IMG/VR virus record: IMGVR_UViG_2681813145_000006
Length of the DNA stretch: 41,316 nt
Source of the DNA: a virus
Taxonomy: Duplodnaviria > Heunggongvirae > Uroviricota > Caudoviricetes
Strand: one strand, 5' to 3'
In this document: one piece after another, positions 4,060 through 27,462 of the stretch
How positions within the stretch are numbered: the stretch's first letter is position 1
Layout: each line of letters starts with the position of its first letter
The notes under the pieces: generated by a model
What the model was told of the DNA's origin: nothing
Seen by the model: the letters and a program-made list of their open reading frames with translations, nothing else
The model's database searches: none
Position numbers and translations under genes: made by a program

Positions 4060-4659
4060 TCAGAATTTATAACCGACACCAACGATGAAACTGTTGGTAC
4101 GCCAGTCACCGCTGCCGGAGCCTTCATAAGCGACGTCAACGGCCACGGATTCGGTCGGGTTAAACTGCACGCCAGCTCCCCACGCCAGAGACGTGTTGCT
4201 GTGGCGACCGTCATCACTTCCGGTCAGCACATCGTGCGTTTTCCCCTTGTTGTCAGTTACGCGGATATAATCCCCGGAGAAAGTCGACACACGGCTGTAA
4301 GCCATACCCGCCATCGCATACGCGCTGAACCATTCATTCACGCGCACAGACGGCCCCGCCATCACGCTGAACCAGCGATTACGCACGGAATCCTCATGCC
4401 AGCGGGTATCGCTGTAATGCGTTTTTTGCTCATCTTCAGCGTTGGCATAACTGAATGACGTAATCAGCCCCAGCGTGTCCGTAAACTCATAACGGTATTT
4501 CACGTTAATCCCGTTCAGATTTTCGCTGCCGGGAGCGTTCGTACGGGCATGAAGATACCCTGCGCTCAGTGTGGCCTGCTGCTCAGACGCCCATGCAGGC
4601 GCACCGGATACGGCCAGACAGATGGCTGCGGACAAAATGGCTGCACAAACTTTACGCAT
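4060..4659 (-). CDS. lom: Outer membrane protein Lom (Ail/Lom family), 199 aa
   Basis: ATG at 4657-4659 preceded by GAGG; signal peptide then beta-barrel-like sequence ending in ...GYKF; position between J and stf as in lambda. Confidence 0.85.
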   Translation of the reverse strand: MRKVCAAILSAAICLAVSGAPAWASEQQATLSAGYLHARTNAPGSENLNGINVKYRYEFTDTLGLITSFSYANAEDEQKTHYSDTRWHEDSVRNRWFSVMAGPSVRVNEWFSAYAMAGMAYSRVSTFSGDYIRVTDNKGKTHDVLTGSDDGRHSNTSLAWGAGVQFNPTESVAVDVAYEGSGSGDWRTNSFIVGVGYKF

Positions 4660-22938: not shown

Positions 22939-23359
22939 GGAACTTCGTTCTCCAGCGATTAAAACGTTTCTCTCTCGGGGATAACATGTATTGCATTCAG
23001 TCCCGCCGCCACAGCGTGCTGATTATGTTCATTGACAAGCTGCATTGTTTCATCAAGCAATTCACGACAGCGATTTGCATTCGTTTCGATGCTCAGCACC
23101 AGTGAATGACCCCCACACAACCGCCCATCCAATAAAAATGGAGAGTCAGCAGAAACAATTTCCGATTTTATGGGGTCAGTTCAACGGAAGGGCTGCTGTA
23201 ATGCTGTGGACAATACTCCTTTTGTCGCTTACTGGTTGAATATCCTGGTTTTTATGCGCTTTATCCATTGTTAAAATACAACCTCAGCCCTCCAGTGATC
23301 GGACACTGTGTGAACAATGAATAAGAGCCTTGGCTAACGGCTCCGCAAAAGGAATGACA

Positions 23360-23569
23360 ATGACAAGCTTTAATATAAATTTAAATGTAACAACAAAGGT
23401 TGAAACCATTTCTGACGTAGCTTTAGAAATTTCCCGTTTAAAAGTTACGATTGGAATATTATTGGCTAAACTACCTCCAGAACAGCGTGATTCATTCATT
23501 GCAGATCTAAAAGGCGTCGGGCTTAATGAAGAGGCCAGCTTATATAGTAATTTCAACCCAAAGATATAA
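23360..23569 (+). CDS. Hypothetical small protein, 69 aa, antisense to the late operon
   Basis: ATG at 23360 with AAGGA 6 nt upstream; AT-rich; followed by its own plus-strand terminator; no signal peptide; family not recognised. Confidence 0.5.
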   Translation: MTSFNINLNVTTKVETISDVALEISRLKVTIGILLAKLPPEQRDSFIADLKGVGLNEEASLYSNFNPKI

Positions 23570-23593
23570 TCTGAATCCATCGTTTACAGGAGC

Positions 23594-23625
23594 GGGGAGG
23601 GAGCAACCTCCCCCCTTTTCTTTAT
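23594..23625 (+). terminator. Rho-independent terminator of the small plus-strand gene
   Basis: 7-bp stem GGGGAGG/CCTCCCC (23594-23600 / 23607-23613) followed by CCTTTTCTTTAT. Confidence 0.6.
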
Positions 23626-23802
23626 CTGGTGTATGTAATATTTCCTTTTAAGTAAAACGCTCCCGTATTATCAACTGCGCCCTCAGGTTTTTTATTGAGA
23701 ATTTTTAATAATTTTGACTTCATAGCAATATTAAAAATCTTTGGGAAAAGAAACATATTTCCTCCTGAATAAATATGCGAGGATGAATTGAGTTCACTTT
23801 AT

Positions 23803-23988
23803 CTAACCTCGCTGCATACACTGCCGGATGCCATCAATCAGTTGGCAGGCCTGAGAAGCAGCGTCAAAAAACTGGCGTGCCTTATCCAGGCTAACGCATC
23901 CCGCCAATAAAAAAGGCACCAGTATCGCTACCAGTGCCCATTTCGCCGCCGTTCGCGGCATTCTGTGTGTCCAGTGTTTTCTGCTCAT
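23803..23988 (-). CDS. Small lipoprotein, 61 aa (possible o-spanin-like lysis accessory or exclusion protein)
   Basis: ATG at 23986-23988 preceded by AGGTG; lipobox LLAGC after a hydrophobic signal; immediately 3' of the endolysin gene; not proline-rich like Rz1. Confidence 0.45.
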   Translation of the reverse strand: MSRKHWTHRMPRTAAKWALVAILVPFLLAGCVSLDKARQFFDAASQACQLIDGIRQCMQRG

Positions 23989-25081: not shown

Positions 25082-25212
25082 GTAAAAAACACCCCGTCAA
25101 AGACACCCGCAGATGCCTTTTGTGTGGTGTTATCTGATGCGATGTACGCCGGACGTGGCGCGGATATGAAAAAGGCCCGCCGTAGCGAGCCATAAAGAAA
25201 CAAAATTCTGAA

Positions 25213-25236
25213 TAAAAAAACCGCCTAGTACGGCGG
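25213..25236 (-). terminator. Rho-independent terminator downstream of the AT-rich cargo operon
   Basis: Stem CCGCC/GGCGG (25221-25225 / 25232-25236), A-run 25213-25220 gives a U-tract on the minus transcript. Confidence 0.5.
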
Positions 25237-25331
25237 ATAAAATGATCAAAAGAACCCGTTATTCGTTATAATAAATAAAAAACCATCAACATGGCGACTC
25301 GACTCAAGAAACGAATTTACTAACTTAAATG

Positions 25332-25841
25332 TTATTTGCGTTTATTGACAGGTAATATAGAATTAGCAGCATCTTTCTCTCTCTCTTGGAACGAGTTATG
25401 TCTTTTAACCATATCAGGACCAATGAGACTATAAATTACTGTCAACAGTTGCCATAAAGTTAAAAAAACCAAAATGGCATATGACGCGCCCCTAAAAATG
25501 TCCTTGTGATCTATAAAAAACGGTATCTGTTTTACTAATGGCGCAACAACGCCAATAATTAAAACTGATGCTAAAATAGCAGTAGAATGTACAATTGGTG
25601 TAAATAACCTTGTAATCCCACTGCCATTAGATTCACTCGCTGAACTGCCACCTCTAAATGATTTTTTTAATCGTTCAGGATAGATTATCGCAAACCAAGC
25701 TCCCACAACTGCAAAGATAATGGATGCTGTAGTTCGCAGGGCCTCATAAAGAGGCCACTGGGATGAGAAGGGAACATTCTTCCCAAAATAGGCAGAAAAA
25801 ATCAGAACGACCATAAGAAAAATTCCACCTAAGATTTTCAT
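25332..25841 (-). CDS. Four-helix integral membrane protein, 169 aa, second gene of the AT-rich cargo cassette
   Basis: ATG at 25839-25841 directly after the upstream stop (TAGATG) with GGGA SD; four hydrophobic segments; family not recognised. Confidence 0.65.
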   Translation of the reverse strand: MKILGGIFLMVVLIFSAYFGKNVPFSSQWPLYEALRTTASIIFAVVGAWFAIIYPERLKKSFRGGSSASESNGSGITRLFTPIVHSTAILASVLIIGVVAPLVKQIPFFIDHKDIFRGASYAILVFLTLWQLLTVIYSLIGPDMVKRHNSFQEREKDAANSILPVNKRK

Positions 25842-26694
25842 CTACATTCCCGCCTCGCGTAATATGAGCTCCCTTTTGCCTACAAGTTCAGAAAGAAGAG
25901 ATTCCGAGGACACAAACTCGGCGTCCTGTCGCTCCAAATTCAAGTGGAATTTGGTTCGTGCTAATGAACGACTGAGCCAATATGTCGTTGGATCTCCTTT
26001 AAATACAAAACCATAATCACAAGAGTTTGTATCGCTATGTTTATTCCAATCATCAATCATCCCCTCGATGTCATCAATATCAACATTCGGAGAAAGTTCA
26101 TATTTAATTTTTGTTGAGGTATTTGCAGTTTGTGGATGGCTAATATTCATATTAATCAATAGTTTTTGCCACAGGCTAAACTCGTCAGGTTTTGACACAT
26201 CAAGTTCAACAACCTTTTCAATTTTAGAAACAATATTAGCATTCTGCCTAATAACTTCATGTTTACCAGGATTTCTTACTAAACCAGCTACGAACTGTGG
26301 ATAGTGTTTTTTCTTTGGCAGCACATCATCTGTTGGGTTAATTTTATAGCCCTTGATAACCACCTCATGCGTGCCATCTTCCTTCTCCACACTTTCCGCC
26401 ACAACGTGGCTTGATGACTGTTTTAAAAAATGATAGAGATAGCATTGCATCGCCTTCTGTCCCGTCAAAGCATGGTTAAACTTGATGCTAGCCACTAAAT
26501 CCATGGATGGAATAAACCAAAAGTAAGTAGCAAAACCAGGAATACTTCCCTTCTGGATTGAATTAAGTATTACTGTTGGGTCCGTACCAAATTCTGTATC
26601 TTCCTGAACCGATGGAACACTTTGATCTGTAGAAGGAACCTCATTCCAGAGCAACAAAACCACATTGTCACCAGCACGTTTCATATCCAGAAGA
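25842..26694 (-). pseudogene. C-terminal part (about 284 codons) of an unrecognised cargo gene split by IS1
   Basis: Frame is open from the IS1 boundary to the stop at 25842-25844; the listed ORF start at 26706-26708 is a TTG inside the IS1 end; first native ATG is 26682-26684 (MKRAGD...). Confidence 0.7.
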
Positions 26695-26709
26695 GGTAAT
26701 GACTCCAAC

Positions 26710-27213
26710 TTATTGATAGTGTTTTATGTTCAGATAATGCCCGATGACTTTGTCATGCAGCTCCACCGATTTTGAGAACGACAGCGACTTCCGTCCCAGC
26801 CGTGCCAGGTGCTGCCTCAGATTCAGGTTATGCCGCTCAATTCGCTGCGTATATCGCTTGCTGATTACGTGCAGCTTTCCCTTCAGGCGGGATTCATACA
26901 GCGGCCAGCCATCCGTCATCCATATCACCACGTCAAAGGGTGACAGCAGGCTCATAAGACGCCCCAGCGTCGCCATAGTGCGCTCACCGAATACGTGCGC
27001 AACAACCGTCTTCCGGAGACTGTCATACGCGTAAAACAGCCAGCGCTGGCGCGATTTAGCCCCGACATAGCCCCACTGTTCGTCCATTTCCGCGCAGACG
27101 ATGACGTCACTGCCCGGCTGTATGCGCGAGGTTACCGACTGCGGCCTGAGTTTTTTAAGTGACGTAAAATCGTGTTGAGGCCAACGCCCATAATGCGGGC
27201 AGTTGCCCGGCAT
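26710..27213 (-). CDS. insB: IS1 transposase InsB frame (expressed as the InsAB' frameshift fusion)
   Basis: 167-aa ORF inside IS1; the A6C slippery run lies at 27150-27156 on the plus strand. Confidence 0.85.
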
Positions 27214-27407
27214 CCAACGCCATTCATGGCCATATCAATGATTTTCTGGTGCGTACCGGGTTGAGAAGCGGTGTAAGTGAACTGCAGTTGCCATGTTTTA
27301 CGGCAGTGAGAGCAGAGATAGCGCTGATGTCCGGCGGTGCTTTTGCCGTTACGCACCACCCCGTCAGTAGCTGAACAGGAGGGACAGCTGATAGAAACAG
27401 AAGCCAC
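27132..27407 (-). CDS. insA: IS1 protein InsA, 91 aa
   Basis: ORF inside IS1 with GTG start at 27405-27407; Cys-rich N-terminus [10 protein letters not shown]. Confidence 0.85.
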
Positions 27408-27462
27408 TGGAGCACCTCAAAAACACCATCATACACTAAATCAGTAAGTTGGCAGCATCACC

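Follow-up and report, generated by a model that had tools for sequence, protein, structure and literature searches.

A small antisense gene behind a conserved promoter-leader region in the late operon of an HK97-like prophage

Here we describe a small gene that runs against the late operon of a lambdoid, HK97-like Escherichia coli prophage, and the promoter-leader region in front of it. The DNA in question, hereafter the window, is the whole 41,316-nucleotide (nt) stretch of IMG/VR record IMGVR_UViG_2681813145_000006. All late genes of the window lie on the minus strand, in the order Q antiterminator, holins, M15 endolysin, small lipoprotein gene, HNH, TerS (P27 family), TerL, portal, protease and capsid, whereas the gene of interest, placed between the lysis genes and HNH/terminase, is on the plus strand and encodes a protein of 69 amino acids (aa). 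It is highly probable that this gene is a moron and that its promoter and leader form a cassette found in front of many unrelated small open reading frames (ORFs) in lambdoid phages. The preliminary description of the window, made from the letters alone, had seen the anatomy of the antisense gene correctly but had overlooked three things, namely, the homology to HK022 Srb, the promoter-leader cassette, and a 44-aa late-strand ORF that travels with the gene.

The antisense gene and the block that carries it

The main features of the locus are the following.

22959 to 23171, minus strand: remnant of a backbone gene (98 aa and complete in UMNF18 and STEC309) that has lost its 5' end, with stops in the upstream frame
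23207 to 23811, no strand: AT-rich inserted block (moron module), missing from sister prophages and found in another backbone (blastn and base composition)
23236 to 23277, plus strand: putative promoter read from the sequence, with a weak -35 element (TTTTTA, 23249-23254), a 17-bp spacer and an extended -10 element (TGTTAAAAT, 23269-23277)
23283 to 23359, plus strand: conserved structured 5' leader (covariance model R1, pattern match, pair counts, RNAalifold)
23349 to 23353, plus strand: Shine-Dalgarno (SD) sequence AAGGA
23360 to 23569, plus strand: coding sequence of a 69-aa protein of the Srb/phrog_6806 family, predicted to be cytoplasmic and three-helical (ORF list, RefSeq, family searches)
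23594 to 23625, plus strand: intrinsic terminator, GGGGAGG-GAGCAA-CCTCCCC followed by CCTTTTCTTT (scan match; unidirectional)

The elements that the preliminary description had named are where it had placed them. RefSeq calls the identical coding sequence (WP_000200355.1, hypothetical protein), and translation from another ATG in the same frame, at 23354, accounts for the 71-aa form present in databases (P0001). The surrounding portal, TerL, TerS, HNH, M15 endolysin, holin and Q genes are all on the opposite strand. The SD sequence lies 6 nt ahead of the ATG, and the extended -10 element consists, as had been read, of TGn plus TAAAAT, with a predicted transcript start at about 23284. The terminator comprises a 7-bp GC-rich stem (23594-23613), seen in both the minimum free energy (MFE) and the centroid folds, and the T-run CCTTTTCTTT; the scan reported it on the plus strand only. 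The transcript delimited in this way is predicted to stop short of overlapping any late gene.

The gene resides in DNA that related prophages lack. The AT-richness mentioned earlier holds for about 23150-23800, where the GC content is 33-44%, compared with about 55% in the flanks. In UMNF18 and STEC309 (loci L011 and L012), which share the backbone, blastn homology to the window runs through 23171 and resumes at 23812, and about 174 nt of unrelated sequence stand where the window carries the block. Because the 20-mer at 23187-23206 of the window abuts the right flank in UMNF18, the inserted block is delimited as about 23207-23811, with a size of about 605-640 nt. The same DNA occurs in strain WY517-2 (L002 and L007), which has 23184-23981 in common with the window at 93-95% identity, in a different backbone with another terminase type; L009 carries a copy of the block at 79% identity, and the full block is present in only 18 of the 5426 complete E. 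coli genomes. On the left side, the backbone gene remnant has lost its first ~28 codons and its ribosome binding site where the block starts, and evidently marks the scar of the module's arrival. The gene thus has the anatomy of a moron. Related, syntenic phages have the flanking genes side by side without it, its base composition is AT-rich and unlike that of its surroundings, and both a promoter-like site and a terminator of its own accompany it. To judge from the sequence, it is a real, self-contained moron, an autonomous transcription unit at the lysis-packaging junction of an HK97-like lambdoid prophage.

Several observations concern the same block or slot in other strains. In the WY517-2 locus L002 (4177-4455), the ORF is lengthened to 92 aa by a C-terminal frame change and reads past the terminator; the neighbours of the module in this backbone are enterotoxin A/B-type genes and the EplA subtilase toxin gene. 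In UMNF18 (L011, 3981-4250), the lysis-HNH slot is occupied by a different antisense gene, WP_000159741.1 (89 aa), the upstream region of which has no match to the leader model R1 described below. This slot is apparently a preferred site for antisense morons.

The product matches phrog_6806, a family that carries no function annotation, over its full length (residues 1-69 of the 70-position profile, E 2.6e-31). An exhaustive HMMER search of 1.84 billion representative proteins recovered 8 clusters, and because all 8 representatives are 71-73 aa long, this is a stand-alone small protein; the possibility, kept in view from the outset, that it is a fragment of a larger known gene finds no support among these homologues. 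Residues E23, K28, G32, K37, R43, G54, F65 and P67 are invariant in the family. A word-indexed homologue search returned only 2 close relatives, and a scan of genome contigs one doubtful actinobacterial match. The family profile aligns with HK022 gp23 'Srb' with 96.6% probability (hhalign, E 6e-10), the record of which reads 'srb protein; moron gene product', so that the window protein is, by profile comparison, a distant homologue of HK022 Srb. AlphaFold yields a three-helix bundle (predicted local distance difference test score, pLDDT, 86.5), with helices at residues 17-36, 40-52 and 56-63 after a 16-residue unstructured N-terminus. The N-terminus, MTSFNINLNVTTK, is not hydrophobic, in agreement with the earlier statement that there is no signal peptide, and the protein, without a transmembrane segment, is predicted to be soluble and helical. 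Scans of the 69-aa protein against Pfam (E<=10), NCBIfam and PADLOC gave only noise, and two profile matches in the PDB were dropped, namely, 3jqh (spurious low-complexity similarity, with no individually significant stretch) and a weak one to aRelB (E 0.17). A type I toxin-antitoxin system was ruled out, the protein being soluble, helical and without a transmembrane segment, and no antisense promoter having been identified.

A promoter and leader shared by unrelated small genes

The regions upstream of the srb-like genes are more alike than the proteins themselves, which are only 35-55% identical among homologues, and the ~75 nt ahead of the transcript start together with the 76-nt leader are not private to the window gene. 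The leader pattern CAGCCCNNCANNGNNNGGACNCTG, which was used to retrieve cassettes and matches the window once, compared with 0.02 matches expected, occurs on at least 120 viral contigs, as against only 7 loci of the protein family in the same collection. At 124 leader-bearing loci, the ORFs that start 73-83 nt after CAGCCC form 20 clusters unrelated by BLASTP; most of these cargos are 56-104 aa long, and throughout the 124 loci the spacing between the leader and the SD sequence and ATG is fixed. The cargos include phrog_6806 (the window gene and HK022 Srb), phrog_21164, 36400, 1853, 10490 and 25324, as well as DUF1883 and a 154-aa retropepsin-like protein; no function has been assigned to any of these cargo families, and PADLOC gave no match to any of them.

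In 72 of 79 cases upstream and 73 of 77 downstream, the nearest large ORF runs against the cassette, as do all neighbours in the window, which are on the minus strand. The cassette occupies at least 8 distinct slots. In tail regions, for example, it stands between lambda-like genes (M, L, K and I types) or follows the tape-measure gene; elsewhere, it is flanked by glycosyltransferase morons, adjoins a SAR endolysin gene, or is found at lysis-packaging junctions. The named phages that carry it are HK022, ES18, HK633, mEp043, mEp213, SPN3UB, Oslo and others, and it is found in 225 of the 5426 E. coli genomes (about 4%), without annotation beneath it.

The window leader belongs to this set as a divergent member. 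Covariance model R1, built from canonical leaders only, with window-type copies left out, scores it at 40.8 bits (E about 4e-9) over the full length of the model (positions 1-80), ending at the ATG; the leaders of HK022, HK633 and ES18 score 82-93 bits. The window copy has the defining parts of the cassette, namely, the 5' UCAGCC, P2, P3 with the GGCUGA loop, and an SD sequence and ATG ~75 nt further on, and departs from the definition in that its loop reads GGCUAA and its P3 is GAGCC/GGCUC. R1 has no match ahead of the gene for the P0004 homologue (L015), so that leader and cargo are separable both ways. The elements of the leader in the window, all on the plus strand, are as follows.

23284 to 23289, plus strand: 5' arm of P1, TCAGCC
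23293 to 23308, plus strand: hairpin P2, with CAGTG (23293-23297), loop ATCGGA, and CACTG (23304-23308)
23325 to 23343, plus strand: hairpin P3, with GAGCC (23325-23329), loop TTGGCTAAC, and GGCTC (23339-23343)
23332 to 23337, plus strand: 3' arm of P1, GGCTAA, within the P3 loop

Across 50 distinct leaders, 93.5% of the cells of the proposed structure are standard pairs, compared with 25-48% when the partners are slid by 1-3 columns. Within P2 (columns 9-15 with 22-28), the unconstrained pair 14-23 switches between UA (33 leaders), CG (13) and UG (4), and in P3, 4 of the 6 pairs show double changes, the window having GAGCC/GGCUC in place of the canonical GAGG/CCUC. RNAalifold adds a long-range helix, P1, between the 5' UCAGCC and the GGCUGA of the P3 loop; because P1 pairs with the P3 loop, P1 and P3 would be either pseudoknotted or alternative folds. 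A targeted search for variants of the P1 5' arm found ten copies with C7 changed to U, which keep a U.G pair, and one true compensatory change, C6-G51 to U-A, in L157. On the opposite strand, the numerous G.U cells of P2 and P3 would turn into A.C mismatches, so that the structure is to be read on the cargo-sense RNA. An upstream mini-ORF in the leader, MADYL*, was rejected, the ATG being ATA, ACG or CTG in several copies and neither stop nor frame being conserved. The P2 loop NNNGGA together with the SD sequence AAGGA may provide dual GGA sites of the CsrA type, an idea only, with the GGAC fixed by the retrieval pattern.

The promoter region is conserved along with the leader. In canonical copies, conservation starts at about -75 with a hairpin followed by a late-strand T-run (AAAAGCCGC...GCGGCT), which covaries (GCCGC/GCGGC vs GCCAC/GTGGC) and which, in the ES18 copy, was annotated by Casjens as the terminator of late-strand gene 24; this opening hairpin is missing from the window copy. 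Canonical cassettes continue with TACTG-N9-CAGG and then with a dyad of constant spacing, CAGG-N18-CCTG, which spans the -35 element and the spacer (-45 to -15 from the leader start) and may be an operator for some regulator. The best-conserved promoter feature among 53 cassettes is a TAnnnT hexamer, with which the -10 element of the window aligns, and the start predicted family-wide is the T or C that precedes AGCCC. By eye, the promoter does not fit sigma-54, sigma-32, sigma-E or MerR-type spacing.

On these comparisons, promoter and leader are, by all indications, a conserved portable cassette that carries at least 20 unrelated families of small ORFs in enterobacterial lambdoid phages. A 3' hairpin, GCGGCC...GGCCGC, that follows many cargos was rejected as a cassette part since it lies inside the coding sequence of the neighbouring late gene. 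A home-made, crude terminator finder placed terminators after only 13 of 85 cargos and was not relied on. Among the individual loci, one phage contig (L029) carries two cassettes ~2 kb apart (about 2299-2322 and 4351-4374, minus strand), the cargo of one being a 73-aa Srb-like protein and that of the other a 154-aa aspartyl-protease-like protein. Another contig (L063) has a match to the Rfam small RNA STnc100 at 1236-1425 (132 bits) and also contains two tRNA genes and a variant cassette.

Expression, function and alternative readings

The explanation that we consider likely, taken as a whole, is that the gene is a moron on a portable cassette, expressed in the lysogen and shut off by late transcription, with a protein-binding product that benefits the lysogen. 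Transcription would start near 23284 from the extended -10 sigma-70 promoter at 23269-23277; the 76-nt leader would fold into two hairpins, with possible pairing of its 5' end with the loop of the second; and the terminator would end the transcript before an antisense run into the lysis genes. With the late operon silent in the lysogen, the cassette promoter could fire, so that we infer expression independent of Q, whereas after induction, convergent, Q-antiterminated late transcription would read through the cassette and damp it, in the manner of a 'non-contiguous operon'. The structured 5' end would most likely stabilise the mRNA or gate its translation, and the protein, by analogy, would most likely act by binding another protein, with phage exclusion as the leading guess. 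A role in defence, specifically, is tentative, and we give it somewhat less than an even chance.

Three precedents from prophages bear on this scheme. TaiEcA, the product of phi80 tai (orf63), is present in the lysogen and is lowered when Q is expressed, which is the logic of the non-contiguous operon (PMC11364771). Tab of JBD26 (gp31) is a protein of 83 aa, the gene for which sits between the terminase genes but runs the other way and has its own promoter (PMC10884400). In ST64B, STMMW_20121, antisense to the lytic genes and with its own promoter, is transcribed in almost all conditions tested (PMC7067206).

Several points weigh against this explanation or parts of it. The -35 element (TTTTTA) is poor, and a consensus promoter scan, for this reason, omitted the site. 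The MFE of the window leader is no better than that of shuffled sequence (z +0.62), so that the support for the structure is comparative rather than thermodynamic; P1 is almost invariant, with uncompensated variants in the GGCUAA of the window itself and in L158, L150, L032 and L040; and the counts of covariation are inflated, because many positions of the leader were fixed by the pattern first used for retrieval and many of the loci are closely related. With respect to function, the window protein matches no PADLOC defence family (the 2023 release of PADLOC predates Tai and Tab), fold searches gave no informative match, and no paper on the function of Srb was found in the searchable literature.

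The alternatives differ in what they take the product of the locus to be. The real gene might be a 98-aa ORF on the minus strand (23580->23284), in the direction of the late operon, with the 69-aa ORF as its shadow. This ORF does exist, and because it overlaps the 69-aa ORF in a frame with common third codon positions, the substitution pattern alone cannot separate the two. Yet, it is open only in copies that are at least 93% identical, shrinks to 32 aa in L009 and to 0-59 aa in diverged homologues, whereas the plus-strand ORF keeps a length of 65-73 aa throughout the 24 distinct family members examined, with pairwise ratios of nonsynonymous to synonymous substitution rates (dN/dS) of 0.02-0.20 in its frame, indicative of purifying selection. 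The plus-strand ORF is also the one called by PGAP, PHROGs and the depositors of HK022 and ES18, and its SD sequence and start codon are conserved, with constant spacing to the leader. Given its retention at constant size under this selection and the decay of the minus-strand ORF, the plus strand is evidently the coding strand, and the reverse assignment is hardly credible. Alternatively, the functional product could be the RNA itself, in which case the leader or transcript would target, for example, late transcripts or host mRNAs in the manner of a small or antisense RNA, and the ORFs would be secondary. The leader is indeed structured and more conserved than any cargo, and the antisense RNA STnc6030 of the late region of BTP1 shows that such a transcript can confer phage resistance (PMC7067206); nevertheless, the strong purifying selection on the cargo ORFs, the invariable distance of SD and ATG from the leader at the 124 loci, and a predicted window transcript that ends before it overlaps any late gene make this quite improbable.

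Two further alternatives leave the gene and its protein in place but assign them a different purpose. The cargos could be anti-defence or early takeover factors, similar to acr products, made from their own promoter at infection and disarming host immunity rather than benefiting the lysogen. Diverse, small, fast-swapping soluble proteins behind one promoter with the CAGG-N18-CCTG dyad do resemble acr loci, and no cargo matches a known defence family; on the other side, there is no conserved Aca-like regulator gene beside the cassette, family and fold searches found no similarity to known anti-defence proteins, and Tab and Tai, both prophage defences, are documented to lie antisense within late operons. 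We regard this reading as unlikely. Small antirepressors, such as Tum and those of the Gifsy prophages, serve as the comparison for the last possibility, a stress-controlled modulator of induction that switches prophages on. Here again, the cargos are small and soluble, and the canonical TACTG-N9-CAGG upstream resembles a LexA box, but CTG and CAG are separated by 9 nt, as against 10 nt in the E. coli LexA box, even this arrangement is absent from the window copy (TACTGGTTGAATATCCTGG), and the site lies upstream of the -10 and -35 elements, not over them. A LexA box in the promoter was accordingly rejected, and an induction modulator is very improbable.

Other features of the late operon are recorded here in their own right. 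A small late-strand lipoprotein gene (23803-23988, minus strand; lipobox LLAGC), probably of the spanin type, directly follows the endolysin gene, and a terminator-like hairpin with a T-run (23939-23914) lies inside its signal-peptide coding region. A second AT-rich island, at about 25200-26700 between Q and the holins, holds a gene for a 346-aa hypothetical protein that is split by a 768-bp insertion with a 9-bp target duplication (26695-27462), which the otherwise identical KKo009 prophage lacks; ORF 26710-27213 within the insertion encodes what we take to be an IS1 InsB-like transposase.

By itself, the gene is an ordinary Srb-family moron, and the HK022 and ES18 records had already applied this term to its relatives. 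The importance lies in the shared cassette, which extends over E. coli and Salmonella lambdoid phages, including the long-studied laboratory phages HK022 and ES18. As far as can be judged, a platform of promoter and structured leader with at least 20 cargo families is not described in Rfam 15, RefSeq, phage annotations or the searchable literature, where the leader motif strings occur in no relevant paper; an earlier mention in the HK97/HK022 and ES18 genome papers is possible. Rfam yields no match to the window leader at E<=10 and none to the leaders of four canonical loci at E<=1. The leader is a simple sequence tag for finding more such small genes and, should it be a regulatory RNA, would define a single point of control over a hidden set of small proteins made in the lysogen. 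It is possible, albeit doubtful, that the ~160-nt promoter and pseudoknot-capable 5' untranslated region (UTR) together constitute an undescribed cis-regulatory platform that places a large, fast-exchanging repertoire of small prophage proteins, candidate effectors of defence or counter-defence, under one host- or phage-state signal. If that is the case, the platform would offer a guilt-by-association handle to dozens of new small effectors, as the aca genes do for anti-CRISPRs. Both HK022 and ES18 can be grown in culture, which makes function and regulation accessible to direct experiment.

Relationship to known systems

The closest known counterparts of the window gene are gene 23 of HK022 ('srb', NP_037683.1), which encodes a homologue of the window protein, and the ES18 gene for gp25. 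Both have the promoter-leader cassette upstream (92.7 and 82.2 bits, respectively), are antisense to the late genes, and were termed morons by their depositors. They differ in position, being located between tail genes (I-J in HK022, M-L in ES18), whereas the window gene occupies the lysis-packaging junction. The window copy is also a divergent leader subtype, with P3 of GAGCC/GGCUC, a better -10 element with a true TGn extension, its own terminator, and no upstream late-strand terminator.

With respect to layout, the gene resembles tai and tab: all three have their own promoter, a predicted one in the case of the window gene, run opposite to the late operon, and lie next to packaging genes, and the window gene likewise interrupts, as far as its sequence tells, a Q-dependent late operon. 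The comparison is one of layout, with no sequence relationship detected or claimed. Tai and Tab block tail assembly, are expressed in the lysogen, and have late-strand counter-genes (Ati and anti-Tab). Tab (83 aa) is also small, like the 69-aa window protein, whereas FLAG-tagged TaiEcA, at 26.1 kDa, is much larger. Facing the window gene is the following late-strand ORF.

23622 to 23766, minus strand: 44-aa ORF (23756->23622) with a perfect AGGAGG (23766->23761) and a 4-nt spacer, read from the sequence and not in the RefSeq annotation

This ORF is kept at 41-44 aa in L002, L007 and L009, at 79-93% DNA identity, and occurs on 508 contigs as an 'uncharacterised protein'. Its coding status is not secure because about 30% amino-acid divergence accompanies the 79% DNA identity. 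Given that Tab and Tai both have late-strand counter-genes, it is a possible partner of the antisense gene. At many other loci (for example, L025, L026, L050, L060 and L140, and gene 24 of ES18 at L142 2924-3184), a late-strand ORF that begins with MTLEQRVEALE and has a variable C-terminus converges on the cargo, often overlapping its 3' end; the transcript of this ORF, with the conserved late-strand terminator past the cassette promoter, would be antisense to the whole cassette. A strict pairing of these ORFs with cargo families was rejected, as they are not strictly cognate.

Lambda bor, a moron expressed from the prophage, was the comparison drawn at the outset, and the likeness in position and orientation is genuine, with both genes located after the lysis genes and before packaging and oriented antisense. 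The products are not homologous: Bor is a lipoprotein with a signal peptide, whereas the window protein has neither signal peptide nor lipobox and no Pfam match, so that the earlier exclusion of Bor stands.

The cassette as such may be compared with acr loci and with integron gene cassettes, where many unrelated small cargo genes are likewise served by a shared, conserved flanking element. In those systems, there is an aca regulator gene or an attC site and an integrase, whereas here neither these nor any sign of site-specific recombination is present, and the shared element is, instead, a promoter joined to a structured 5' UTR.

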